A stretch of DNA of 27,935 nucleotides, from NCBI GenBank assembly GCA_964010765.1, contig CAXGMD010000046.1, positions 1 to 27,935 of the forward strand, read 5' to 3'. A program made the translations under genes and the position numbers. Below the pieces are notes generated by a model. The model saw only the letters and a program-made list of their open reading frames with translations, searched no databases and was not told where the DNA came from. Origin of the DNA: an uncultured bacterium (GTDB lineage: Bacteria > SAR324 > NAC60-12). Of this stretch, positions 660 through 27,935 are shown one piece after another (position 1 is the stretch's first letter; the number at the start of each line of letters is the position of its first letter).

Positions 660-1073
660 ATGGCTTTTCTGCTGGACACACACGCACTGCTATTCTGGAG
701 CAATCAGCAAGTTCTCTCAAAAATTCAGCTAGAGAAGTTGGATCGTTTAGCTCAGCAGGGCCGACTCCACATCTCAACGGTTGTCTTCTGGGAAATTGCT
801 CTCCTCATCAGGTCTGGCCGACTCGCTGATTTCAATGTGCAGAACTGGAGCGAGGAGCTTCAGCATGCCGCTGGGATTCGATGCCTTCCTCCAACGATCC
901 CTGAAATGCTACACTCCGTAGCCTTACCTCCACATCACAAAGATCCTTTTGACCGCTTGATGATTGCCCAAGCTCTCTTGCACCAAATGACTCTGATCAC
1001 GAAAGATCAGACGATTCAACGCTACGAAGTTCCGATGTGCTGGGAGGGCCTGGAGGATTTAAGCTTGGATTGA
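660..1073 (+). CDS. vapC: Type II TA toxin, VapC/PIN-domain ribonuclease
   Basis: LLDTHALLFW, S..VFWEIA, HKDPFDRLMIAQA and LITKD PIN motifs. Confidence 0.92.
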   Translation: MAFLLDTHALLFWSNQQVLSKIQLEKLDRLAQQGRLHISTVVFWEIALLIRSGRLADFNVQNWSEELQHAAGIRCLPPTIPEMLHSVALPPHHKDPFDRLMIAQALLHQMTLITKDQTIQRYEVPMCWEGLEDLSLD

Positions 1074-7559: not shown

Positions 7560-8582
7560 CTAATTCACAGGACCTTCTTCCGAGGGTAAATCGAACAGAT
7601 CCTGATAACCAGGTTTGGGCTCAACGAACTCTTGAATCCGGATCGCCCGGCGTCCGCGATACGCTCCCTGGAATCCTCGAAACTTCAAGACGTTCTGCAC
7701 GTAGCCCTCAAGAGCATCGTCCTTGGACTGTTCCAACTGCACATGATCACCAACGCGTAGCTTCAAGAAGCGCCGTAGTGAAACCTGAGCATTCCCCAAA
7801 GGCACCCGAACTTCTACCTTAGATCCTCGCAAGTGGGCCTCCAAGCGAGCGCGATTGACCGGACTTGGTTCAGTATCAGCATTGACCGCACCACCGTCCA
7901 AACGATTCCGAATTGGATCAAGCATGTTGTAGGGCAGGCAAATGGTCATCGTCATCGGTAGGCGATGCAATTCCACGTCAAAAGTAGTGTAAACAACGAT
8001 CTCTTCATCACTCGCAGCTTGGGCCAAGCGAGCATTGGTTTCCATTCGATCAAAACGCATCTTCAGAGGGACAATAGTTTGCCAGGCGTTACGCAGATCT
8101 ATCAGGGCACTGTGGACGATCTTGGCGACAACCTGAGATTCAATACGGGTAAATTCCCTTTCTACATCCCGTACCTGGAGGCGTCCATCTCCTCCGAACA
8201 TCAGGTCAATGAAACAATGGATCAGGCGCTGCTCCATCCCAAGTAAAGCGGTTCCACGTAAGGGTGGTAAGTGAAAAAGGCTCAATGATGTGGGATAGCT
8301 AATACCTTCAATATAGTCTTTGTAGTTCACTAATTCCGTGGTGCGTCGCACGATCCGAAAACTGCGTCGCAGGTGATTGGAGAGGGTTTGCTGTAAAGAA
8401 CGGGCAAAGCGATCATGAACGTTATCCAATCCAGGGAGATGACCACGTATGATGCGGTTTTTACGAGCTAGGTCGAAAGGGACGATGTCGTCGGCAATTT
8501 GCATTTCTTTATTGCTGCCAACAGGGACTCCCTTGAGCAAGGCTTGAATATCTTCATTACTGAGTCTGAGTTTTTTTTCCAT
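7560..8582 (-). CDS. fliM: Flagellar motor switch protein FliM
   Basis: LSNEDIQALL (CheY-binding LSQxEIDxLL-like), DLMFGGDG, REFTRIE, C-terminal SpoA domain (LKLRVGD). Start set at ATG 8582. Confidence 0.92.
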   Translation of the reverse strand: MEKKLRLSNEDIQALLKGVPVGSNKEMQIADDIVPFDLARKNRIIRGHLPGLDNVHDRFARSLQQTLSNHLRRSFRIVRRTTELVNYKDYIEGISYPTSLSLFHLPPLRGTALLGMEQRLIHCFIDLMFGGDGRLQVRDVEREFTRIESQVVAKIVHSALIDLRNAWQTIVPLKMRFDRMETNARLAQAASDEEIVVYTTFDVELHRLPMTMTICLPYNMLDPIRNRLDGGAVNADTEPSPVNRARLEAHLRGSKVEVRVPLGNAQVSLRRFLKLRVGDHVQLEQSKDDALEGYVQNVLKFRGFQGAYRGRRAIRIQEFVEPKPGYQDLFDLPSEEGPVN

Positions 8583-8590
8583 TTGGTGTG

Positions 8591-9058
8591 ATGATGCGTT
8601 TAGGAGTATTAGTTTATATCGAAAAAGATGAGCAGATTTTGATGATTCATCGCCAGAAACGAGATGAACATCAAGGTTTTTGGTTGGCTCCTGGTGGAAA
8701 AATTGAAGCCAATGAACCACCGCATGAAGCTGCCCGTCGAGAAGTGATTGAAGAAACTGGGCTGAAACTAACCGATCTGCACCTTCAAGGGTTGCTGAGT
8801 TTCCCGGATCTAGGAGATTCTCCCTTTGGCGATGAATGGCACGTTTTTGTCTTTTATTCGAACAGTTTTCAGGGTGCCTTGCGAGAGGATTGTCCGGAAG
8901 GCATCCTTGCCTGGATTTCTAAGAAAGAATTGACTTCCCTGCCAATGTGGGAGGGAGACCGACTGTTCACCCCGATGGTCTTTCAGCAGCAACCCTTTGG
9001 TGGGAGATTGCTCTACCGGGGTAATGTTCTGCATGAATCACAATTTTGGAATCTTTGA
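8591..9058 (+). CDS. Nudix hydrolase, 8-oxo-dGTP diphosphatase (MutT/MTH1-like)
   Basis: Nudix box GGKIEANEPPHEAARREVIEETGL, plus CPEG.L.W and LPMWEGDR. Start is 8588, 8591 or 8594. Confidence 0.9.
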   Translation: MMRLGVLVYIEKDEQILMIHRQKRDEHQGFWLAPGGKIEANEPPHEAARREVIEETGLKLTDLHLQGLLSFPDLGDSPFGDEWHVFVFYSNSFQGALREDCPEGILAWISKKELTSLPMWEGDRLFTPMVFQQQPFGGRLLYRGNVLHESQFWNL

Positions 9059-15761: not shown

Positions 15762-17222
15762 GGAATGATGTTCAAAAAATCACACTCAGCAGGGAGTATC
15801 CTGGCAGTCCTCAAGAATTGGAATAATCTTTCTGGCCAGGAGATAGAGTCTAATTGCCCTATCTGATCATGATCAATCAGGGCACGAAAGACTCCCTCGT
15901 TACCTTGAAGATGGTAATTCAGCATCCAGACATCTTGGTTTGTAGTACCCATCACTGGCTTACCAATCAGTGACCACTTTTTTTGGTCTATCAAAATGTC
16001 TAATTGAGATCCATATAAGGAGGCTAACTGTAAGTGATTTCGATAGGGCCACCATCGATGTAAGTGGCTACGTTTCAAAAGTTCTCCAGTATTTGGAAAG
16101 AGTAGTGGTTCATATTGCCAACTTGGCAGCAGGGCTCTTTTTGGTTCTGGAAGCGCCGATTTGATCAGTTCGTTTATGCAATTTGACCAAGCTGTTTTGG
16201 ATGGTTCCTTCAGCCAGCGAACGGGCAATTCCGTTGTCATAAATTGGTCTGCCCGCTTTTGCCAAGGAAGCCATGATAGCCAGTCCTCGGCAATTTCTTG
16301 AGGCGCCTCCACGTATTGATAGTGGCTTTGCGTAATACGCCAACGCTTCTGTCTTAATTCCAGAGACCAATGCACCTCAATCCAGCCATTCCCAAAAGCA
16401 CCTGGAGCCACTAAGGGGGCTCGATACCGATTGAGGTGAGAGGTCGACCGTCTAGGAAATGTTTGGTGAGCATGCCCCGATACAACTAGATCAACGCCAG
16501 GTACATGATCGGCCACCCAGCCCGCAGCATTGGCGTTGGGGAGGCCAGCATATAGGTTTTCTTGATCTCCGAACTTTTTATTTGAGCCACTGTGCAACAA
16601 CGCAATAATGAGATCGACCTGCTGTTTTTCACGTAAGATTTTTTGTGATTTCTTTGGATCTTTCAAGAATGTCAAGAAATGCTAAATCATTTGCTAATTT
16701 TTCATGCCACATTGGAGCCGCAGGTGTCGTCAAACCAAAGACCCCAATTCGAAAGCCTCCTTTTTCAATGATTTCGAAACTTGGGAATTTGGGCCAGGTG
16801 CCTCTTATTGATACCACGTTTCCAGCGAGCATCGGGAAATTGGCTATTTTCTGAGCGACCTTCAACTTGTCAGCACCCAACGCCAAATCAGCATTTCCTA
16901 AGACTACGGTGTCCCACTGTAGTGCATTCAAGATTTCCAGTTGTGGAAATCTGGGAGGAGAGTGCTCATGCGTTAAAAAGTGACTAAAATCTGATCCTCC
17001 TAACAAGTCCCCTGCATCAAGCCGTAAAGTTGGGACTTCTCCGCGCTTGGGAGCCAGAGCATCAGCAAGATAAAGCCAACCTTGATTGCGACTAGCGTAC
17101 TTTGAAGCAAGAATGCCTTTGGTATCTCCTGTGATCAGAATACGCAGTTGTCCCTTGGATGAGTAACCAACAGCTGGGAAAGATAGAAGGAGAAGTAGGA
17201 AGATTAGGAGGCGAGACGACAT
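15758..17222 (-). pseudogene. Secreted metallophosphoesterase/5'-nucleotidase-like gene split by a frameshift
   Basis: N-part has ITGDTKG, DAGDLLGG, VLGNADL, FPMLAGNV and IGVFGLTTP. C-part has VDLIIALLHSG, PGVDLVVSGHAH and WPYRNHL. Removing one base from the A6 run (T6 at 16639-16644) gives a single 487-aa ORF. Confidence 0.75.
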
Positions 17223-17674
17223 GACAACTGAGCATCGCTCAGGTGTTGATTGAATTGGTAACGAAAATCTCTGCGCGCCTTTTCAGAGGAAGTGGGACTG
17301 TCAAACAGCGTAGCAAAGTGTTGGTTTGCTAGAATCGACCATTGTTTAGATTCTGTGGGGTTACATCCTGCGAGTTGTGCAAGGGATATCCAGTGCAGAT
17401 CTTGACTGCGGTTCGCGGCTTCCTCGGTCAATTGATCCCAATTTGCCTGTAGAAACTGCTCTTCCTCATAACGTTGACCCAATGTCCAATCTTCACAACC
17501 CATGGTCCCTGAAGAACTGGCAAAAGCAAAGGTGGATGAAGAGGAAATGTCTACGGAGAACGCATCAAGCTTCCCATCAGCAAATCCCATAGGTCCACCC
17601 TCGTGACAAGACCAGGCAGTACCACTACTTAGAAGCCAGGCAGTAACAAAAAAACTAGCCCACCTTGCATTCAT
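17204..17674 (-). CDS. Secreted DUF3015-like protein, paralog 2
   Basis: Signal peptide, STFAFASSSGTMGC, FLQANWDQL.EEAA and LAQLAGC. Confidence 0.7.
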   Translation of the reverse strand: MNARWASFFVTAWLLSSGTAWSCHEGGPMGFADGKLDAFSVDISSSSTFAFASSSGTMGCEDWTLGQRYEEEQFLQANWDQLTEEAANRSQDLHWISLAQLAGCNPTESKQWSILANQHFATLFDSPTSSEKARRDFRYQFNQHLSDAQLSCRLAS

Positions 17675-18125
17675 GGCGCAAACTCGGATGTGATTGAATC
17701 CATTGGCTCAGTACAGGTACCAAGGCCTCTACTTGACCATTATTGTGTAAGTGGAAATCGATCCTCTCCTGATGCAATCTCAGGAAATTGCCAAACTGCT
17801 GTTGGCCGACCTCAGAACAATAATACAAAGCTCCCAGCGCCTCTGAGTGTGGACCATGGCCTATTGCAACTTCTTCTTCGAGCGTGGCTTGGTTGGCGAC
17901 TAAAAATTGCCAACGGGCGAAGCGTTCCTGCAGCGCAATATCCCAATTCGGGCAATTGGATGTCCCAGAAGTAGTCGCAGAGGAGTAAACGGGAGAGAAG
18001 GTTAGGTCGACTGAGGAAAGCAAAGGATCTTCGCTTGTAGCACCCATCATGGTGCCCTCACAGCCAGCAAAACTTTCTGCTACTCCGAGAAAAAACAGCG
18101 ATGTGAGGAGCAATGAAGAGCGCAT
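17655..18125 (-). CDS. Secreted DUF3015-like protein, paralog 1
   Basis: Signal peptide from ATG 18125 (ORF open to 18170), SSATTSGTSNC, FLVANQATLEEEVAIGHGPH..AL..LY.C. Confidence 0.72.
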   Translation of the reverse strand: MRSSLLLTSLFFLGVAESFAGCEGTMMGATSEDPLLSSVDLTFSPVYSSATTSGTSNCPNWDIALQERFARWQFLVANQATLEEEVAIGHGPHSEALGALYYCSEVGQQQFGNFLRLHQERIDFHLHNNGQVEALVPVLSQWIQSHPSLRHECKVG

Positions 18126-18185
18126 GGCTGACGCGAGATCGGGTGAAATGGAGAAAGCACCCAGCATCACTGGGTGCTGGAAGCA

Positions 18186-18847: not shown

Positions 18848-19207
18848 CTAAGGTAGTGCAGTGATCCAATTCAATTGTTCTATTCCATCTTTCTGAAGGC
18901 TTCCCAAAGCCATTGAGGGCAAACCGGAATCAACCTGCCAGTGCAGTTGCCAGTCAGAAAATATGGGATCAGTCAATTCGCGTTGATGAGAACCGATTTG
19001 CCGTGATTCATCGTCAAGTTCTGCAAGCAACATTGAAACCATCCAGTTGTCAAATTGGCTTGCGATGTGTCGGGCCTCTCTTTGTTGCTGAATCCCGCTT
19101 GCGATGGCTTCAGCAATCCGGTTTGTGTTCCAAAGCACCAGCAGCAGCAAAGGAAGTGAAAGTGCTACTTCCAGCAAGGTAAAGCCTAATCGCTTTTGCA
19201 TCTTCAA
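18848..19207 (-). CDS. Prepilin-type N-terminal cleavage/methylation protein (minor pilin/pseudopilin)
   Basis: KRLG|FTLLEVAL type IV signal. ATGA overlap with the carboxylase stop. Confidence 0.75.
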   Translation of the reverse strand: MKMQKRLGFTLLEVALSLPLLLLVLWNTNRIAEAIASGIQQQREARHIASQFDNWMVSMLLAELDDESRQIGSHQRELTDPIFSDWQLHWQVDSGLPSMALGSLQKDGIEQLNWITALP

Positions 19208-21960
19208 AGAGTAAGTAGTTTGAGTGTGACCTCCTGACGATATTTTGCCAACATGGTGGCGTCTTCTTCCACAATTGGGTGATCAGGCTCAATTTGGAAG
19301 AGCAGTTGTCCCCTTGAAACCAGAGTGCCTCCGGAAGAATCTACACATACCTGCCTTACCGTTCCCGGAAATTCTGCCCTAATTGGATTAAACATCTTCA
19401 TCACCTCTAACAGTCCAAGCACATCATTTTGCTCCACATGTTGCCCAGCCTCCACGTAGGGTGGACTGCTGGGTGTTTCACAAGCATAGAAGGTTCCTCC
19501 TGTCCAACTTCGTACTTCATCGCTATGAGATGGTGGAAGAGGTGCCAGTGCCTGGGAGTATTGCTTGATCTTTTCAGTATTCTGAAACTCCTTTGGAATG
19601 ACTGGAACCAGTGCTTGATTGCAATTCCAATCAAAATACCCGCTGCTAATGCCCAATGAGATGAGAATACTCAGCAAGGGAACCAAGCCGACTTGAAAAC
19701 CAGCATGCGCTGCTTGTACGTCTGACCAGAGATCCTCGTCAAATCCGACAGGGGCCTTGTTTTCGAGGATATTCCGCAAATCTTCCCATTCTGGGTAACC
19801 TAAGCGATTTTCCAAATCTGCATAAAACTGGAGTCCTTCTTCGAGTAACAGATGATCATCCTCCCAGATAATTTCACTGGGAGGTAGTCCACTTCTTTTC
19901 TCCCAATGCAGGTAACGATAAAGCTCACGCAGCACATGAATCGGATTCTGACACCACTGAATCTGCTGCTCCTGAATTTGCCATCGAGGCTTTTGACGTT
20001 TGGCAAGCCATCCGGCGATGAGATGTGGCATACCCAACAAGCGCCTGAGTGGTCTTAGCAGCAGCGTTTTTTTCCTTTCAAAAGCTCTAAGAGCCTCTGG
20101 GCCTAGCTCCTTGATTGATCCACTCAAATGCTGCCAAGCGAACTCCAAGTCGATATCTTTCGCACCCAAGCTCAGCTTGCCGCAGAGCGCAAGGTAGGAC
20201 TCCACAAAACGGGTGTTTGGCTTTACCATCGAATCCACACCCAACATCCAATACAGAATCCCATAATGAAATGACAGGTTGAGTTGTAGATCTGTTCCGC
20301 GCACTTCCATTTCTCTAAGAACACGAGCCATTTGCTCTAGATTTTCTAAACGTGTCCTGCCCCATGTGACGGACAGGGCCACATTAGAATCGTAGGCGCC
20401 AGCAAGATGATAAGGTTGGAATAAACCAGTATCAGGATTCCGTAATCCAATCCCCTGGTCGTCTCGTAGTTCCCCTTCAATTGGAGCCGACCATGAGCGT
20501 AAAATACCCCCAGCATGAGGTTGTAATCCCTGGTTGGTTGCATTGATTCGAACCTCCATTCCAGATAGATTTCGGAGTCGCCGTTGTGGTTTGGGAAGCA
20601 CTTGTCCGTAGCAGGCAACCAGAAACATTGCGGCAACCAGTGAATCTACAAGGAAGTTGTCGCCAGGTTTGTCCGGGTTAGTAAATTCGAGCCTGTAAGC
20701 CATCTCTGTGACTCGATGTTCGACCTGAATTCTAGTGTTTACCTCCATGAAGTAGTGTTGGTCTCCTTCAACAATGCACTCAAAGGTGGATACGTTATCC
20801 AGCCCTAGAGCCGTTCCGAAGTCCTGAGCTTGCTTACACATCTCACGTAGTACGACTAGGTCTTGCTGAAGTACTTCTGCTTGACGATTTTTGCCAACCT
20901 CAAGATATTCAGCAATCGTTTGCTCAAGCAGCTCTTCAGTGAGTGAAAGTTCAACTAATTTTTGTTCGTGCATCTGTAGAGAACAGTCACGACCGCCCAA
21001 CTCTATGCACCACTGGCCATTACCAAGTAACTGGACTTCGTTGTGGCGAGTATCTTCAATGTTCATCTCGATTAGGAAAGTCTTGTTGTCACCCGGACCA
21101 GTCACTCGAGCTTCAATCAAGACAGCCCTTACGGCGGCTTCAATATCTGCTTCACTTTGAATAACCCGTTGACCCTTTCCACCACCACCACCAATATGCT
21201 TAAAGCGTAGTCGTCTGCCTGGGTTTTTTGCCCAGATCTCCTTACAACAGATGAGTGTTTCTGACTGCAATTCTTCTATGCTGAACAGATCAATCTGGCG
21301 CTTGTAGGAAGCCTGCAGAATTTGCTCAGCTTGGTCCAATATGTCTGAATTGAGCTGCAAATCTGTTGGCACAGGAAGTTGATGTCGATCAATCAGGTTT
21401 TTAAGAAATTGAGAAGGATCGTTGCCTCCAGCTTTTTTCAAAAGAGTGCGTGCAGTGATTCGATCTTCACCCGGAGTTACCGATACGCTTAGCTTACGAG
21501 CCAATTGTTTGGCTTCATCTTTAGAGCCTGCCTGCTGAATCACTCTTGCACTGGGGCCAACAAAGCAAATATTCGCTTCTTCAATCTGCTTTACGAAGTC
21601 ACCGTCCTCAGCCATGAACCCATAGCCTGCAAAGAGGTGGGTGTAGTTGTGCTGTTTGCAGAGACGAAGAATTTTATCAATGCATTGCTGTCGTTCCTCT
21701 CGTGACGAGCCAACATAATCAGGGATATGGTGGACCTGTTCATGACGATTAGCGAGGAATCGCAGTTCGGGAGCAAGTGTTTGGGGATACGTGATACTGT
21801 CTTTTTCAGAAAGGAGAATGCCGTATCGTGCCCCCAGTTCCTCCAAGACTTGCATGACTTCAAGGCGAATGGGGCCGCGGCAGACGATGAGGCACTTTAC
21901 GTCCTTAAAACTAAATTGCTGTTGCCACGGGCTTGCAGGATTAAACGAAAGTGCTTTCAT
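19204..21960 (-). CDS. Biotin carboxylase fused to biotin carboxyl carrier domain (acyl-CoA carboxylase alpha-type subunit)
   Basis: GYGFMAED, FVGPS, GGGGGKGQR, RDCSLQMHEQKLVE, FMEVNTRIQVEH.VTE, E.RINA and biotinylation site EVMKM. Confidence 0.92.
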   Translation of the reverse strand: MKALSFNPASPWQQQFSFKDVKCLIVCRGPIRLEVMQVLEELGARYGILLSEKDSITYPQTLAPELRFLANRHEQVHHIPDYVGSSREERQQCIDKILRLCKQHNYTHLFAGYGFMAEDGDFVKQIEEANICFVGPSARVIQQAGSKDEAKQLARKLSVSVTPGEDRITARTLLKKAGGNDPSQFLKNLIDRHQLPVPTDLQLNSDILDQAEQILQASYKRQIDLFSIEELQSETLICCKEIWAKNPGRRLRFKHIGGGGGKGQRVIQSEADIEAAVRAVLIEARVTGPGDNKTFLIEMNIEDTRHNEVQLLGNGQWCIELGGRDCSLQMHEQKLVELSLTEELLEQTIAEYLEVGKNRQAEVLQQDLVVLREMCKQAQDFGTALGLDNVSTFECIVEGDQHYFMEVNTRIQVEHRVTEMAYRLEFTNPDKPGDNFLVDSLVAAMFLVACYGQVLPKPQRRLRNLSGMEVRINATNQGLQPHAGGILRSWSAPIEGELRDDQGIGLRNPDTGLFQPYHLAGAYDSNVALSVTWGRTRLENLEQMARVLREMEVRGTDLQLNLSFHYGILYWMLGVDSMVKPNTRFVESYLALCGKLSLGAKDIDLEFAWQHLSGSIKELGPEALRAFERKKTLLLRPLRRLLGMPHLIAGWLAKRQKPRWQIQEQQIQWCQNPIHVLRELYRYLHWEKRSGLPPSEIIWEDDHLLLEEGLQFYADLENRLGYPEWEDLRNILENKAPVGFDEDLWSDVQAAHAGFQVGLVPLLSILISLGISSGYFDWNCNQALVPVIPKEFQNTEKIKQYSQALAPLPPSHSDEVRSWTGGTFYACETPSSPPYVEAGQHVEQNDVLGLLEVMKMFNPIRAEFPGTVRQVCVDSSGGTLVSRGQLLFQIEPDHPIVEEDATMLAKYRQEVTLKLLTL

Positions 21961-22140
21961 GAGAATTCAGAAACCAGAAGGAAATGAATAAAAAAGTTTT
22001 CAAAAATGATTCAATTTGGAAAAATTTGGGGCAGAATAGAGGGCTTTGTGGTAGGAGACAAGGTATTTGCCTTTAGATTCCTCACCCCAATATCAAGACA
22101 TTGGAATCAAAATTCAATATGATCTCAAGCAAAGGAGACC

Positions 22141-22710
22141 GTGTACGAAACTGCTGATATCCGCAAAGGATTGCGAATAGAACTGGATAGCGAACCCTAC
22201 GCCGTCATTGAATTTCAGTTTGTGAAGCCGGGTAAAGGAAATGCATTTACGAGGACTCGAATTCGCAATCTAATCAATGGTTCGGTATTAGATCGAACCT
22301 TTAAGACGGGTGAGAAACTAAAGCCTGCCGATACTCAGGATCGGACCATGCAGTTCCTCTATCGAGATGAGGGGGATGGGGGCTTCCATTTTATGGACAA
22401 CAGCAGTTACGAGCAGGTCGCTTTGGATGCTGATCTCGTCGGTGATGCCACAAACTACTTGATTGACAACATGGAAGTGAACGTTGCTTTCTTTCGTGAA
22501 CGACCGATCGGCATCACTCTTCCTAATTTTGTAGTTCTAGAAGTTGTTGAAGCTCCTCCAGGGGAGAAGGGCAATACGGTTACGGGTGCATCCAAGCCTG
22601 TTGTTGTTTCCACAGGTTACACCGTCAATGCACCTATGTTTGTTTCTGAGGGAGAGTTGTTGAAAATTGATACTCGAACAGGCGAATACGTAGAGCGCGT
22701 AAAAGCTTAA
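22141..22710 (+). CDS. efp: Elongation factor P (Lys34 type)
   Basis: VKPGKGNAF.R, MQFLY, KIDTRTGEYVERV. GTG start after AAGGAG. Confidence 0.97.
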   Translation: MYETADIRKGLRIELDSEPYAVIEFQFVKPGKGNAFTRTRIRNLINGSVLDRTFKTGEKLKPADTQDRTMQFLYRDEGDGGFHFMDNSSYEQVALDADLVGDATNYLIDNMEVNVAFFRERPIGITLPNFVVLEVVEAPPGEKGNTVTGASKPVVVSTGYTVNAPMFVSEGELLKIDTRTGEYVERVKA

Positions 22711-22717
22711 GGCCACT

Positions 22718-25700
22718 ATGAAAAGCATGCTGAAGTTCAGGGATATTATCCTGGGCAAAAAAGATGATTCTCCGGATTCTTCGCAGAAAAAGGGTGACGC
22801 CAAGCAGGGCGAGGATTCACTTTCTCCGGTTGCCGCAGAACAAGTCAAAATTTTGATGGAGCTCTATCAGGAAGTTCCTTGTAATCCAAAGTCAGGGGAT
22901 CTTGAAAAACGTATTAAAAATATTGTCAAAAGTCTTCAGGGAAGCAGTTTGCTGGAAAGCATTCGTGAGACTTTCTCCGATGAGCAAGTAAAAGAGTGGA
23001 AGGAGCAATCGCAGAAAGAATTTGATGAAATGGGTAAGCTCAATCGAGCTCGAATGGAGAGTCTCATTGAGGTGGCTGATGAAGGCATGCGCCAAGTCGT
23101 TTACGAAAGTATTTTTATTTTTGATGTCAATCCGTCAGATCAACCCAATCTCGATATCACTTATAAGAAGGGTGTTGATCCAGAGACTGGAAAACCAATG
23201 ATTCACCGTGATCGCTATCATGTATTTTGTGAGAATGCGATGCATGGTATTGATGGAATCGATCGTTGGTTACCAGAGCAGTCCAAACGTGAGGGGGAAG
23301 GTAATTGGATGGCCCATCTGCAGGAGCAGTTTGGTGAACTGGTCAATGATTTTGGGAAAAGCGAGAAGCCAATTGTGCAAACACTTAGCACGATTGGGAG
23401 TCTTGGAGGTATTGGCCACAAGCCTGATTCTGACGTTGATGCACAGGTGATTTTTGGAACAGAGCCCCGATATGAACACAATTGGACTGATGCTGACTTC
23501 TTCATTGCCTTGGCCTTCAAGATCATAAGTTCTGCTTATGATCGTTATCTTCTTCAATTTCCAGAGGAAAAGCGAGAACAGCTAAAGCAAAAAGTGAAAG
23601 ATCAGATGATCGAGGAGCATGGTGAAGCTCTTAGCCCTGAACAGCAGAAAATCATCGACATCATCTTTCCAAGTACCTACACACTATTGATGCGCAAAAC
23701 CTGTCGGGCTTTGATCAGCAAGATGGAGCCGGGCAAGCAAATGCAGTTCTTCTGGTCTCAAATTCCACTAATCTTACGCAAGTTGCCAGAGGGTGACCTG
23801 TATAGGAACGCACTGATTCTCTTTTTTCCTTTTCTCAAAAACATCCCAGCTAGGAAACTTCAAGGAAGCTGCTTTCCAAATTCTGTTACTTCAATGGATG
23901 CTAATGCTGCCCTTGGGCGATTGATCATTTTCTATCGTGATCGTGTATTGGGCCAACGAGTAGTGATGAAGTTATTGGAAGAGCCGGCCAAGGCAGCTGG
24001 GGTTGAACCAGCCAAATTCCCACCTGCCCAACAAAGGCAAGTGCTAATGGAGCATTTGAAGAAGAATCCCTCGCGTGGAAAGGTCGTTCAACAATTCTTG
24101 GAGCATGTCTCTGAGAGTTATCGTTGGGAAGTCGCCCAAGACGCTGATGAGTGGCACACCGATGTTGGCCAGCAAGTAGGCTTGGATCAACAGATGCTGG
24201 AAGTGATTCAATCGATTCCTCTCAAAGACCAGGCTCGTAAGGGGTTTTTGAAAAGAATGGTGGATTTGGTAAACGCTAGAGTGGAGCAGGAAGCAATACG
24301 CAACGAAGCCGCATATGAGCCGGGTACTTCTCGTAAGATCTACTATGCAGAAGAATACGAACTGGCAAAATATCCTGCTCAGGAAGCTCATTACTTTGTG
24401 AATATCCTTCGTAAACAGCGGGCTGGCCAACATACGCCATTCTTGGTATCGCCGGAAGGCAGCATGGCATACTCCAACATGCTCAATGATCTACTGCTCA
24501 ATCCTGCAACGCTTTTGTGTGGCTTGTCTCCGATGCCCTTTTCACTGCCTGAAGAAGTCAAAATCCTTTCGAATATTGGTGTTTTCCCTGACTGGGAAGT
24601 GACCCAACATCGAGAGCATCAAGGAGATGAAGAACCTGATCCAAGAGCCGCAGCTGAAAATCAGGAAACATTCAAACTTAGAAATCTTCCAAACTGGGGA
24701 AACTATGCGCCATCCAGAGAAGTTTTTCTGACCTATGTGATTCCGATTTTTCTTAGAGAAAGTGAGAAGATCAGCCATCGGAATCTCCCGAAGGCGCTCT
24801 TAAACACTTGGTGGATTGAAATGCTCACCTGTGATGAGGATACTCCTGAGCTGACCAGCCTGACCAAACTCTTAATCTTTCCGAACGACAGAGCCTTCAT
24901 CAAGAAAGAGATGACAGGTCCTTACGTCGATATCATCAAGAGTATGGAAGAGGAATTCCCACAGCTTGTCCGAGATCCTTGGTGGATCAAGTTTACGGAG
25001 ATGCTGATGCGTTTCCAAGATCCTGAAGTACAAAAAGAAATGCTTTTCTGTTTTGCTCAGCACATTCGTGCTTCGGATGTTATTGATTTAGACACAACAT
25101 CTGGGGAACCTATCTATCTTGATAAGAATTCCTCCTGGCGCTTCAAGGCAGTGCATCGCTTTTACACGAAGTTCTATGCTGAAGAGGGACCTCGAATTGA
25201 TTTAATGAAATTCTCCCAAGGTAGGGATGATGTGGCTCAAGAGAAGGAAACTGTTCTGAAAAAGCTTTTCCTCAACAGTATGAAAAACACGGAGCGCAGA
25301 CTGATTCAGATTGGTAATCAAAATACCATCAACCGAATGAGCCAATACATAACCCAGGTTACGAAGAACAATGAGGAGAAGGAGCGTGTCGAGAAAATAC
25401 TGACCAAGCCTCTGGACAAATTGATGGACCGTATGTTGATCGTTGACATGTCCGTGGTGGATAAAGCGCAAACTGAGGCTGAACTGAATGTCATTGAAAA
25501 ACGCCAGATTGCTCAAATTCAGGATGATCGCCGGAAAGTTGGAGAATTATCAACTTCCATCACCAAACACTACGGTGAGAAGTTGCAGGCTGAACTCAAC
25601 AAAGAGGTCGTTGAGAAAATTATCTTCCAATCCAGGGTTCCCCTTGCGGGAGATCCCTTGGAAAATGTCATCTTCAAGTATCACTTCGAAAAGAATTTCA

Positions 25701-26557
25701 ATCGTCGCCCATTTCAAGTCCCACTACCTATTTCCAAATCACTCTGCATCCCTAGAAACGTAATTCTTTTGGAGTTTGAGCCGAAAAAAGAGAAATGGAA
25801 ATTCAAGGCAATGATCTCTAAAAAGGCTGGTGGTAGTGGTGGTAATCAGCTTGAGATGTTTCAGTCAAATCTGGTCGAAGGTGTAACTCGTTGTGTTTTC
25901 AGTAAGTACATCGGGTTTGATGCTCGAGCGATGACCTCCTTCCAGAAAAACGCAGTTTCTTCCAGAAGCGTTGTGGCTTCCAATCCCGTCACAGCAGATG
26001 ATCTGCAGAATCTTGCAGGTGACATCAAGAGTTTTTGCAAACCAATTCGGGTCAGTTCAACTGAGCTCTTAGAGAATATCTACTATCTATACGATGTGAT
26101 GATTGTCTGCAACGTGGATCGTCCGCTAGGATGCGCAGCCATCGTCAGAACAAATTTTGATGAACAGTTTGTTTTCACATTTGATTTGAACAAAACGCCA
26201 ACCATCGAAAAGGATCCTGGTCTTGCCAGCACAAAAAACCAACCAATGCACACGTTCTATCAAAGATTCAATAGCTTGCCAGCACGAAAGCTCTACTGGG
26301 AGGCATTCAACAAACTGAATCTTCCAATGTCAGAAGAGCAGCCACCAAAACTGAAAATCTGGGTAAATCCAGGAAGCTTTAACTTGAACGTCACTCCCAA
26401 GTACCAACGAGTCTACCTGAATGGTATTGCGGAAAATCTTTGGAAGCCAGAACATGTCTGGAAAGAACCTGCTGATGATGCGAAATTTGCTTTGATTAAG
26501 GACTTTGATGAAATTGGGAAGCAAGCTATTACTGACTATCAGCAAAATCATGAGTAA
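22718..26557 (+). CDS. Large diverged class-I adenylate cyclase-like nucleotidyltransferase
   Basis: TIGSLGGIGHKPDSDVD (pol-beta GS..DxD) plus colinear matches to recalled E. coli CyaA blocks: LNRARM, PKALL, DPW, CF, WR, VRTNFDE. Confidence 0.75.
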   Translation: MKSMLKFRDIILGKKDDSPDSSQKKGDAKQGEDSLSPVAAEQVKILMELYQEVPCNPKSGDLEKRIKNIVKSLQGSSLLESIRETFSDEQVKEWKEQSQKEFDEMGKLNRARMESLIEVADEGMRQVVYESIFIFDVNPSDQPNLDITYKKGVDPETGKPMIHRDRYHVFCENAMHGIDGIDRWLPEQSKREGEGNWMAHLQEQFGELVNDFGKSEKPIVQTLSTIGSLGGIGHKPDSDVDAQVIFGTEPRYEHNWTDADFFIALAFKIISSAYDRYLLQFPEEKREQLKQKVKDQMIEEHGEALSPEQQKIIDIIFPSTYTLLMRKTCRALISKMEPGKQMQFFWSQIPLILRKLPEGDLYRNALILFFPFLKNIPARKLQGSCFPNSVTSMDANAALGRLIIFYRDRVLGQRVVMKLLEEPAKAAGVEPAKFPPAQQRQVLMEHLKKNPSRGKVVQQFLEHVSESYRWEVAQDADEWHTDVGQQVGLDQQMLEVIQSIPLKDQARKGFLKRMVDLVNARVEQEAIRNEAAYEPGTSRKIYYAEEYELAKYPAQEAHYFVNILRKQRAGQHTPFLVSPEGSMAYSNMLNDLLLNPATLLCGLSPMPFSLPEEVKILSNIGVFPDWEVTQHREHQGDEEPDPRAAAENQETFKLRNLPNWGNYAPSREVFLTYVIPIFLRESEKISHRNLPKALLNTWWIEMLTCDEDTPELTSLTKLLIFPNDRAFIKKEMTGPYVDIIKSMEEEFPQLVRDPWWIKFTEMLMRFQDPEVQKEMLFCFAQHIRASDVIDLDTTSGEPIYLDKNSSWRFKAVHRFYTKFYAEEGPRIDLMKFSQGRDDVAQEKETVLKKLFLNSMKNTERRLIQIGNQNTINRMSQYITQVTKNNEEKERVEKILTKPLDKLMDRMLIVDMSVVDKAQTEAELNVIEKRQIAQIQDDRRKVGELSTSITKHYGEKLQAELNKEVVEKIIFQSRVPLAGDPLENVIFKYHFEKNFNRRPFQVPLPISKSLCIPRNVILLEFEPKKEKWKFKAMISKKAGGSGGNQLEMFQSNLVEGVTRCVFSKYIGFDARAMTSFQKNAVSSRSVVASNPVTADDLQNLAGDIKSFCKPIRVSSTELLENIYYLYDVMIVCNVDRPLGCAAIVRTNFDEQFVFTFDLNKTPTIEKDPGLASTKNQPMHTFYQRFNSLPARKLYWEAFNKLNLPMSEEQPPKLKIWVNPGSFNLNVTPKYQRVYLNGIAENLWKPEHVWKEPADDAKFALIKDFDEIGKQAITDYQQNHE

Positions 26558-26634
26558 TTTTTTCTCAAGCTTCGTCGTGCTTGGTTCTACCTCGTGATTA
26601 AGTGAATTTTCGAATTTGCTGGTGTTGAGTCAGC

Positions 26635-27852
26635 ATGCTCCAAGAGTTTCCTCCCACCTTCATTGCTCGCTGTCTCGGATTTGATGAATCTGCGGAAGAG
26701 TTCCACTTCCAATGGCAGGAGCACCGATTCCCTCTAAAAGCCGATCAGAATTTAAAGATCACCGAAGGTGCCCTGATTCGATTTCAATTCAGTCAAGGCA
26801 AATTCGTAACGGAAAAGGTTGTCTATACGCCTCCAGCAGGTCTGAAAGCTAATGGTGATGCACTCCGCTGGCGCAAACTCAATCAATTCCCCTCACGCTT
26901 TCATTGTCTGAAAGCAAGGCACCATATCCTGCGTAGTATTCGAGATTGGTTTGATCAGCAGGGTTTCCTTGAAGTTCAAACCCCAGCAAGAGTCAAAGCA
27001 CCAAATCCTGAAGCCCATTTTGATCTAATTCAATGTGATCAGGGATACCTGGTAACCTCACCAGAATTTCAAATGAAACGTATGCTGGTTGGCGGATTTG
27101 AAAAGATTTACCAAATCAGTGCCTGCTACCGAGGAAAGGAAGTCGGTCAATGGCACAATCCAGAGTTTACGATGCTCGAATGGTATCGTGTTGGGGAGAA
27201 TTGGCACCGATTGTGTCAGGACATTCAAGAGATAACTCAGTGCCTTCCAGGGGTATGGATTGATTCAAAGCAACATAAAATGTTGGAAGGTGAATGGAAA
27301 CTTACAACAGTCAATGATCTTCTTCAGGAATTTTGGCAATTTGAAATACGACCTACAGATCAAGCAGGAGATCTCCTCGAAAAGCTCAAGGAAAATGGTC
27401 ATGAAGACTGGATCAATCAGCAAAGGATCAATGGAGAATCTTTCGTAGTTATTTTTGGCAGGATTTGGGATGAACTCGAACAAAAACTTGGGTGGGAAAG
27501 ACCTTGCTTGGTCACAGATTGGCCTCCTCAACTGGCTAGCCTCGCCCAGCTCACTCCAAATGGCCTTGCCGAAAGAGTGGAATGCTATGTTCAAGGAATG
27601 GAGATCGCCAATGGCTTTGGTGAACTGACGGACCCTAATGAGCAGCAAAAACGCTTTGAAATAGAATTAACCCATCGGAGCCAGGTCGGAAAATCAGATG
27701 TTGGGTTAGATCACCAATTTCTTGACGCTTTGTGGGAAGGGATGCCTCCAAGTTGTGGGATGGCACTAGGTATAGAGCGCCTATTGATTTGGCTGTTGGA
27801 TGTTCCATCCATTGAGAATGTGATGGCTTTTACGGAATCTGAAATTTTCTGA
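26635..27852 (+). CDS. epmA: EF-P lysine aminoacylase EpmA (GenX/PoxA) with N-terminal extension
   Basis: FLEVQTP, LVTSPEFQMKRML, HNPEFTMLEWYR, EIANGFGELTD..EQ..RF and GMPPSCGMALGIERL motifs, same strand as efp. Confidence 0.92.
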   Translation: MLQEFPPTFIARCLGFDESAEEFHFQWQEHRFPLKADQNLKITEGALIRFQFSQGKFVTEKVVYTPPAGLKANGDALRWRKLNQFPSRFHCLKARHHILRSIRDWFDQQGFLEVQTPARVKAPNPEAHFDLIQCDQGYLVTSPEFQMKRMLVGGFEKIYQISACYRGKEVGQWHNPEFTMLEWYRVGENWHRLCQDIQEITQCLPGVWIDSKQHKMLEGEWKLTTVNDLLQEFWQFEIRPTDQAGDLLEKLKENGHEDWINQQRINGESFVVIFGRIWDELEQKLGWERPCLVTDWPPQLASLAQLTPNGLAERVECYVQGMEIANGFGELTDPNEQQKRFEIELTHRSQVGKSDVGLDHQFLDALWEGMPPSCGMALGIERLLIWLLDVPSIENVMAFTESEIF

Positions 27853-27890: not shown

Positions 27891-27935
27891 CATAAGCTTT
27901 CGCGAGTTATCGTGAGTTCTTTGAGAGTCGATGTG

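Follow-up and report, generated by a model that had tools for sequence, protein, structure and literature searches.

A giant Pol-beta-type nucleotidyltransferase gene between efp and epmA in SAR324 bacteria

Described EF-P and nucleotidyltransferase systems beside the SAR324 locus

Elongation factor P (EF-P) needs lineage-specific modification in most bacteria, and for the largest EF-P family covered by a survey of more than 3,000 genomes, the account given there is that about half of the lysine-type proteins (51%) carry an unknown modification (PMC11388002). In the EpmA/EpmB/EpmC system of E. coli and Salmonella, residue A298 of EpmA is described in a preprint as gating the use of beta- versus alpha-lysine (bioRxiv 10.64898/2026.07.07.736966). 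Here we consider a locus from an uncultured SAR324 bacterium, carried on a stretch of 27,935 nucleotides (nt) (contig CAXGMD010000046.1 of assembly GCA_964010765.1; this whole stretch is the window below), in which a gene for a protein of 1279 amino acids (aa), here called X, lies between efp and epmA. The locus is like the EpmA/EpmB/EpmC system in its lysine-type EF-P with a KPGKG loop, its EpmA with the Ala298-equivalent gate, and its clustering of efp with epmA; it is unlike that system in that EpmB was not found, EpmA is extended at its N terminus, and a giant nucleotidyltransferase (NTase) gene sits within what looks like an operon.

X resembles three groups of described enzymes, each in part. 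It shares with the class-I adenylate cyclases (E. coli CyaA type; PF12633 plus PF01295; PRK09450) a GSxG...SDxD motif and a strand/helix block that reads EVHFF...SGSAQ..LLKDEFYRT..AG..P in the cyclases and EAHYF...EGSMAY..LNDLLLNP..CG..P in X, but it differs from them in its helical inserts of ~220 aa and ~120 aa, its C-terminal region, and its efp–epmA setting. Like ANT(9), ANT(3'')(9), and enzymes of the kanamycin nucleotidyltransferase type, it is predicted to have an N-terminal Pol-beta NTase domain and, after it, a helical bundle, the active site lying between the two; however, the ANT enzymes have ~250 residues, whereas X is five times larger, its NTase domain is split by ~300 residues, identity is 8-11%, kanamycin nucleotidyltransferase itself gives only a marginal match by sequence (E 0.74), and there is no evidence that X uses an aminoglycoside substrate. 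To the MNT-HEPN systems and the GlnE/DrrA-type protein adenylyltransferases the model of X is linked by structural matches to the minimal NTase fold, to a HEPN-like bundle, and to DrrA, all at scores within the background of the aligner. Unlike MNT-HEPN, X has both domains in one chain with large inserts, lies in no toxin–antitoxin context, and has no match in PADLOC. An NTase joined to a HEPN-like domain is the architecture used for protein AMPylation.

Our analysis identifies X as a Pol-beta nucleotidyltransferase that belongs to the class-I cyclase superfamily and whose genomic association is new. An overview-level survey of the literature on SAR324 EF-P, EF-P AMPylation, and efp/epmA neighbourhoods turned up no account of efp–epmA operons that contain a cyclase-like or nucleotidyltransferase gene. 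The locus represents a clade with EpmA, no detectable EpmB, and a strongly conserved, uncharacterized enzyme in the same operon-like unit. An earlier sequence-only reading had already placed a big open reading frame (ORF) between efp and epmA, on the same strand and at spacings of 7 nt and 77 nt, as the ORF list bears out, and had seen no radical-SAM aminomutase gene in the window, in agreement with Pfam scans of the 27 main window ORFs.

X is a real, strongly constrained gene. Across eight congeneric genomes its identity is 94.9-98.4%, compared with 80.7-91.4% for EpmA and 96.8-99.5% for EF-P, and since X thus exceeds EpmA in the same genomes, we conclude that selection on it is strongly purifying. 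Elsewhere in its taxonomic family (f1 below), other genera carry full-length homologues that are ~1160-1340 aa long and 34-44% identical to it, and many near-invariant blocks are kept across X paralogs at 35-44% identity, with 1-8 family copies per genome. By sequence searches this family of nucleotidyltransferases of more than 1200 aa is rare and seen only in SAR324: a profile of aa 36-870 run against 1.84 billion cluster representatives retrieved only 132 proteins at E<=0.001, comprising ~15 full-length X-type clusters, ~25 of 900-1060 aa, and a remainder of fragments and weak tail. Among 88 genomes of the phylum the long form was found in f1 alone, and shorter relatives of ~920-1080 aa are scattered over SAR324 as a whole. 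X matches no Pfam or NCBIfam family at E<=0.01, a precomputed PF12633 tag is attached to 23 of its 55 database matches, and a search of the ESM Atlas gave a best score of 0.84, within the range of chance. The sequence contains no PPP motif, and so gives no sign that translation of X itself needs EF-P.

Predicted fold, active site, and distance from class-I cyclases

The motif of the Pol-beta NTase superfamily, GS...DxD...E, is intact in X, with G227-S228 and D239-x-D241 (nt 23396-23440) followed by E556 as putative third carboxylate, and the strands of the AlphaFold2 (AF2) model are placed to match. In at least 90% of 32 aligned rows of the X family G227, S228, D241, and E556 are kept; D239 is present in every efp-linked copy that covers the motif and lost in only four paralogs not linked to efp. 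All efp-linked copies covering the motif keep GS...DSDxD together with E556, and conservation along X peaks around the predicted active site. The DSDxD string is altered to DSGFD, DSNLD, DSNMD, and EQPID in the unlinked paralogs at loci L029, L032, L036, and L045, and these four are likely, judging by their residues, to be pseudo-enzymes within the family.

The AF2 models, made from alignments of 32 and 33 natural homologues, have a mean pLDDT of 90.8 and a pTM of 0.88 for aa 36-870 and a mean pLDDT of 88.8 for aa 861-1279. Foldseek found no match in the PDB at E<=0.001 for either model (835 residues in the case of aa 36-870), and searching the PDB by sequence, with X or with its family profile as query, returned just designed helical repeats or matches at E>0.08, with no class-I cyclase structure among them. 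VIA-align does detect an NTase alpha/beta fold in the N-terminal model, with its best scores for ANT(9) (6sxj; Z 9.6, 223 of 250 residues aligned) and ANT(3'')(9) (7uy4; Z 9.4, 230 of 257 residues aligned), followed at lower values by the minimal MNT transferases (8xeh, 2rff, and 1no5; Z 6.2-6.8), ANT(4') (6.8), LinB (5.9), DrrA (5.3), and CdnE (5.0). HEPN chains align to model residues 631-834 at Z 5.0-7.1 (2hsb 7.1), values that fall within the background stated for helical bundles. X is thus predicted, from these models, to consist of a split Pol-beta NTase domain carrying a ~300-residue all-helical insertion, followed by a HEPN-like bundle, in an ANT/KNTase-type layout.

Most of the insertion (~aa 281-500) is missing in the ~940-aa relatives. 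The second half of the NTase domain combines the strand E556-A-H-Y-F, which would supply the candidate third carboxylate, with a near-invariant HTPFLVSPEGS..LNDxLLNP string, and it is this segment that aligns to the class-I cyclases. The HEPN-like bundle contains a near-invariant PIFLRESEKVSHRNLPKALLNCWW block. The C-terminal 300 residues are conserved and shared with the ~940-aa relatives; a VIA-wide search with aa 861-1279 gave just generic helical-bundle matches, on aa 861-980 (Z<=6.8), a second look with VIA stayed at Z<=4.8, the uL18-like and ASKHA-like half-folds among its matches scoring ~4, and we claim no fold for this region. Co-folding of X aa 80-870 with EF-P, both supplied as alignments, gave a score of 0.00 and a mark of 0.32, a result that bears neither way on binding.

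The most conserved block of the HEPN-like domain includes the string R680-x6-H687 (RESEKISH, window 24755-24778), whose spacing fits a HEPN RNase. We considered it as an RNase site and dropped that reading because the string is missing in the ~940-aa relatives and aligns to a lysine-rich block in class-I cyclases.

The sequence-only reading had labelled X CyaA-like. What stands of that label is a remote homology of the catalytic core; a place within the class-I cyclases does not follow. The only Pfam match of the window's X at E<=10 is to PF12633 (Adenyl_cycl_N), and it is sub-threshold (E 0.072, 13.5 bits against a cut-off of 27), covering 33 residues (aa 213-245) that correspond to the motif IGSLGGIGHKPDSDVD. 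Four of seven family members scanned do pass the PF12633 cut-off (30.5-35.7 bits), two of these being ~940-aa outgroup relatives, and the best stretches cover part of the 199-position profile, ~40 residues in X-type members. PF01295 has no match in X at E<=10 and none in seven relatives at E<=0.1, and the NCBIfam class-I cyclase models return nothing for X and 24.5 bits against a cut-off of 802 for a ~930-aa relative.

The evidence for homology comes from profile comparisons. The weak tail of the X profile search consists of genuine class-I cyclases (both PF12633 and PF01295 were found in 8 of the 13 matches scanned out of the 132), which the profile reaches at E 1e-5 to 1e-3 through two collinear stretches, one at the GS...DxD motif and the other at profile positions ~499-576. 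Aligning the X family against eight class-I cyclases with hhalign gave 98.3% probability and E 1.3e-14 over ~120 columns, and paired EAHYF...SPEGSMAY..LNDLLLNP..CG..P of X with EVHFF...ECSGNAQ..LLLDEFYR..AG..P of the cyclases. Among the class-I invariants (P0176 numbering), X keeps the E of EVHFF, G170, A172, L176, the D of LLKD, and G190. Given the lack of PF01295, a PF12633 match that covers the motif only, and the loss of further invariant residues (E180, R183, and the tryptophan pair, discussed below), we place X outside the class-I cyclases. Its catalytic core is homologous to theirs remotely, at superfamily level only, and the X family is the nearest known outgroup to the class-I adenylate cyclases.

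Gene order, EpmB, and expression of the locus

The sequence-only reading had asked whether the order of efp, X, and epmA recurs in related genomes. By searching genomes for X, efp, and epmA and calling ORFs at the fetched loci (30 genomes from 12 genera, g1 to g12), we found that it does, in two gene orders and in 24 of the genomes and 9 of the genera of the family. The order efp-X-epmA occurs in 18 genomes, from g1 (nine, one of them split over two contigs) and from g2, g4, and g12 (three each), and the order X-efp-epmA in six, from g7 (two) and from g9, g3, g8, and g10 (one each). Four genomes have adjacent efp and epmA with X elsewhere, namely one from g5 and the three examined from g11, a count that leaves aside 15 further g11 genomes. 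The remaining two genomes, one of them closed, are from g6 and have neither an X-family gene nor EpmA; there the genes downstream of efp, for a carbamoyltransferase and citrate synthase, are the same ones that the X-efp-epmA genera have after epmA. The sister family f2 has efp next to epmA, and its only X relatives, of ~950 aa, are sited elsewhere. The 5' neighbours of efp in g6 are glnA-glnE in one genome (L049 1150-5644), GlnE being another Pol-beta-type protein adenylyltransferase, and genes for a Fic-domain protein and HsdM in the other (L048 2355-5374), which is probably a coincidence.

Spacing within the locus is tight in the relatives as well. The efp-X gap is 3-27 nt, the X-epmA gap is 1-12 nt in efp-X-epmA loci outside the window's genus, and several of the X-efp-epmA loci have a 4-nt overlap between efp and epmA. 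The genera with efp-X-epmA (g1, g2, g4, and g12) have no flanking gene family in common, so that the trio is the sole conserved block. In g3, g7, g9, and g10 the linked block runs flgF flgG flgA flgH - a 575-aa protein of unknown function - X - efp - epmA.

In a maximum-likelihood tree of X (quick search, LG+G4, 34 rows, rooted on two ~940-aa relatives, with six near-identical g1 rows and duplicate loci left out), a clade with support 99 unites all efp-linked copies with unlinked paralogs from large-genome genera. The linked copies do not form one exclusive clade, and those in the X-efp-epmA order fall into two subclades split by unlinked paralogs. A further, unlinked clade comes from g2, g4, g11, and g12 and has a context of its own (flgF, flgG, flgA, flgH - X - a 408-aa protein of unknown function - tilS), and other unlinked copies adjoin ftsH. 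X-family genes thus recur in two settings, beside flagellar basal-body genes and beside efp/epmA, and the tree topology fits an old linkage from which duplicates were seeded elsewhere. The two conserved neighbours, of ~575 aa between flgH and X in the X-efp-epmA genera (L030 11193-12920, minus strand) and of ~408 aa between X and tilS in the unlinked clade (L016 8986-10212, plus strand), belong to no family in Pfam, NCBIfam, or PADLOC.

Both partners of X are recognizable. EF-P scores 234.7 bits against the TIGR00038 cut-off of 185.8, matches all three Pfam EF-P domains, and has Lys32 at the tip of its KPGKGNAF (PGKG) loop; EpmA scores 289.5 bits against the TIGR00462 cut-off of 286.9 and is thus a member of that family. 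The Ala gate lies in GMALGIER (aa 375-382), which aligns with GVALGVD of Salmonella GenX (3g1z), and all 18 SAR324 EpmAs checked have Ala where the E. coli enzyme has A298. Because the gate is kept, a beta-type substrate is still expected.

EpmA of the window also begins with ~85 aa (nt 26635-26889) that the E. coli and Salmonella enzymes lack and that have no match in Pfam or NCBIfam. SAR324 EpmAs have such N-terminal extensions, of ~70-130 aa, in both f1 and f2, with a weakly conserved pattern, GRV..(strand-like)..G.LI.F....GD.LRWR, which resembles a vestige of the OB-fold domain with which lysyl-tRNA synthetase (LysRS) binds the anticodon.

A genome-wide search for epmB, which the sequence-only reading had proposed, found no bona fide epmB in the window's own assembly (3.86 Mb, 92% complete). 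The proposal of that reading thus survives two of the conditions by which it could have been refuted, those on gene order and on epmB. Across the 25 f1 genomes, this one included, none exceeds the EpmB cut-off (TIGR03821, 369.3 bits) and seven have a TIGR03821 match at E<=1e-20; of the 16 genomes of f2, which have efp-epmA without a full-length X, 13 have a match at E<=1e-20 and four exceed the cut-off. No KamA-type match at E<=1e-20 was found in 16 of the 23 EpmA-bearing f1 genomes, some of them 94-99% complete; since the assemblies are mostly incomplete, EpmB in f1 is best described as not found rather than absent. The sole TIGR03821-like match in the window's assembly lies on another contig (G000:C81:8162-9120; L001 1219-2663), where a frameshift at a short A-run divides it between two reading frames (137.7 and 108.3 bits), reflecting either an assembly error or a pseudogene. 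It encodes a radical-SAM domain with LAM_C and stands between a thiolase gene and a gene for a D-Ala-D-Ala-ligase-like ATP-grasp protein, and on the basis of the LAM_C domain and these neighbours we assign it to the KamA type, in a context that is not that of EpmB. An EpmA without a found EpmB, its Ala gate kept, is the strongest hint of a different pathway in these bacteria.

The arrangement of the locus (Table 1) looks like that of an operon, with small gaps, no terminator-like hairpin in either the efp/X or the X/epmA gap by pattern scan, and one such hairpin after epmA. Pattern counts for promoters and terminators at the locus are not above those of shuffled sequence; for promoter-like sites in the region there are 4, against a shuffle mean of 8.3. 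Among RNA-labelled public runs, 17 hold 68-85% of the sampled words of the stretch, and the efp/X and X/epmA junctions are both spanned by assembled contigs in all four RNA libraries considered, from four studies.

Table 1. Coordinates of the genes, signals, and predicted parts of X at the efp–X–epmA locus (window numbering)
Feature	Position	Strand	Length or basis
Promoter-like site 5' of efp, AAGACA-17-TATGAT	22095..22123	+	pattern match only
efp (EF-P, lysine type)	22141..22710	+	189 aa, GTG start; ORF list, Pfam, TIGR00038
X (giant nucleotidyltransferase)	22718..26557	+	1279 aa, ATG start; ORF list, profile comparisons
X aa 145-257, predicted first half of Pol-beta-type NTase domain	23150..23488	+	conservation, AF2 strands, VIA matches to ANT(9), ANT(3'')(9), MNT
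X aa 258-551, predicted all-helical insertion splitting the NTase domain	23489..24370	+	alignment, AF2
X aa 552-655, predicted second half of NTase domain	24371..24682	+	conservation, AF2, hhalign
X aa 666-869, HEPN-like helical bundle	24713..25324	+	HEPN chains Z 5.9-7.1 on model residues 631-834
X aa 870-980, second helical insert	25325..25657	+	missing in ~940-aa relatives
X aa 981-1279, conserved C-terminal alpha/beta region	25658..26554	+	pLDDT 88.8 model; best Z 4.4
epmA (EF-P--lysine ligase)	26635..27852	+	405 aa, ATG start; TIGR00462
Terminator-like hairpin 3' of epmA	27899..27916	+	pattern match only

Possible roles of X, and other features of the window

The reading that we favour, if tentatively, is that X is a signalling or regulatory nucleotidyltransferase or cyclase co-expressed with EF-P and EpmA, rather than an enzyme that carries out a step of beta-lysylation. 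X would then be an active Pol-beta-type nucleotidyltransferase, related to the class-I cyclase catalytic core as a far-diverged sister. A nucleoside triphosphate, probably ATP, would bind in the cleft that separates its split NTase domain from the HEPN-like domain, with D239, D241, and E556 holding metal ions. The alpha-phosphate could be attacked by the 3'-OH of the nucleotide itself, yielding a cyclic messenger as in class-I cyclases, or alternatively by an acceptor hydroxyl, yielding a nucleoside monophosphate (NMP) adduct. In the family of the window's organism, one X paralog would have stayed together with efp and epmA in one transcription unit, so that the dose of X would follow that of the EF-P system. 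The substrate of X, its product, and any effect on EF-P are what we infer from these comparisons. That a genome can carry many paralogs, and in varied contexts, is in keeping with a signalling family.

Several points weigh against this reading. No member of the X family has a known product or substrate, the best VIA scores (Z 9.4-9.6) are only modestly above the background of 7-8 stated for the tool, and the nearest solved folds are acceptor-modifying transferases (ANT, MNT, and DrrA) rather than cyclases. The class-I invariants E180, R183, and W195/W196 (P0176 numbering, eight cyclases) are not kept in X, so cyclase chemistry is not assured. As for co-expression, the RNA-library contigs also span the divergent promoter region 5' of efp, which leaves room for DNA carry-over, and such contigs are unable to prove a single transcript. 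Finally, both gene orders around efp may come from a single ancestral adjacency, in which case the events of linkage would be few.

X could instead be an enzyme of EF-P modification itself, either transferring NMP to one of three targets (EF-P, EpmA, or the lysyl side chain) or otherwise supplying or replacing the EpmB step; we regard this as unlikely. X lies between efp and epmA or directly 5' of efp in most of the genomes and genera compared (24/30 and 9/12), in a family in which EpmB exceeds the cut-off in none of 25 genomes and 16 of 23 EpmA-bearing genomes have no KamA-type match, in contrast to f2, in which 13 of 16 have one and efp-epmA occurs without a full-length X. The Ala gate in 18 of 18 EpmAs leaves a beta-type substrate of unexplained source, the sole genus without X, g6 (two genomes, one closed), also has no EpmA at the same efp locus, and the modelled fold is like those of ANT, MNT, and DrrA, which adenylylate hydroxyls of small molecules or proteins. 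A role in modification is favoured by EpmA without EpmB, by the joint lack of X and EpmA in g6, and by a trio that persists while its flanks change.

On the other side, and weakening also the specific proposal of the sequence-only reading (NMPylation of EF-P or EpmA, or a messenger co-expressed with the anti-stalling machinery), the efp-linked X has no domain or insert that is missing from its unlinked paralogs, it is one of 1-8 copies per genome, and a second clade of paralogs has its own flagellar and tilS context while others adjoin ftsH. Moreover, g11 and g5 keep efp and epmA adjacent with X elsewhere, KamA-type genes are also present in four X-efp-epmA genera, and a 2,3-amino shift lies beyond the chemistry of an NTase on its own. 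Paralog number, alternative contexts, and the lack of any EF-P-specific domain argue for a signalling role or a merely historical linkage. An extended version, in which EF-P activation was rebuilt in f1 by loss of EpmB and recruitment of X, which would nucleotidylate EF-P, EpmA, or the attached lysyl group or open a new route to the EpmA substrate, strikes us as slightly less likely still. If true, it would make this locus a previously unseen type of post-translational modification system for EF-P. To our knowledge SAR324 has no cultured member, which is why a three-gene system open to heterologous expression matters here.

It is likewise doubtful, in our judgement, that the linkage is historical and without function, an ancestral X downstream of flgFGAH having come by chance to stand beside efp-epmA, with a local rearrangement then giving efp-X-epmA and X itself serving, for instance, in motility signalling. 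The flagellar block ahead of X in g3, g7, g9, and g10 and the position of the unlinked clade, also after flgFGAH, are as this scenario would have them; ~940-aa relatives occur across the phylum without efp linkage, the linkage was lost in g11 and g5, and one local move converts either gene order into the other, which again means few independent events. Against chance, g1, g2, g4, and g12 share no flanking family, yet in them the trio is intact and its genes are 1-27 nt apart (77 nt in the window). All other lineages searched have efp next to epmA, in several with a 4-nt overlap, so that X stands between genes that are otherwise always paired, and expression of epmA presumably depends on read-through of X. 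In addition, g6 has neither X nor epmA, yet keeps efp and the downstream neighbours.

That X is a catalytically dead scaffold is very improbable, for although the four unlinked paralogs that have lost D239 or more of the motif indicate that pseudo-enzymes do arise in the family, the efp-linked copies covering the motif keep GS...DSDxD and E556 without exception, and conservation peaks at the predicted active site.

Elsewhere in the window, between 10.3 and 19.2 kb, Pfam recognizes no family at E<=1e-6 in about ten ORFs, each of 110-500 aa. A 918-aa fusion protein (19204-21960, minus strand), encoded divergently from efp, joins a biotin carboxylase (N, ATP-grasp, and C domains) to a C-terminal biotinyl carrier domain, and its matches to acetyl-CoA, pyruvate, and urea carboxylase models are all far below the cut-offs. 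The window further encodes two tandem DUF3015 paralogs (17204-18170, minus strand), a PIN-domain protein (660-1073, plus strand), and fliM (7560-8720, minus strand).

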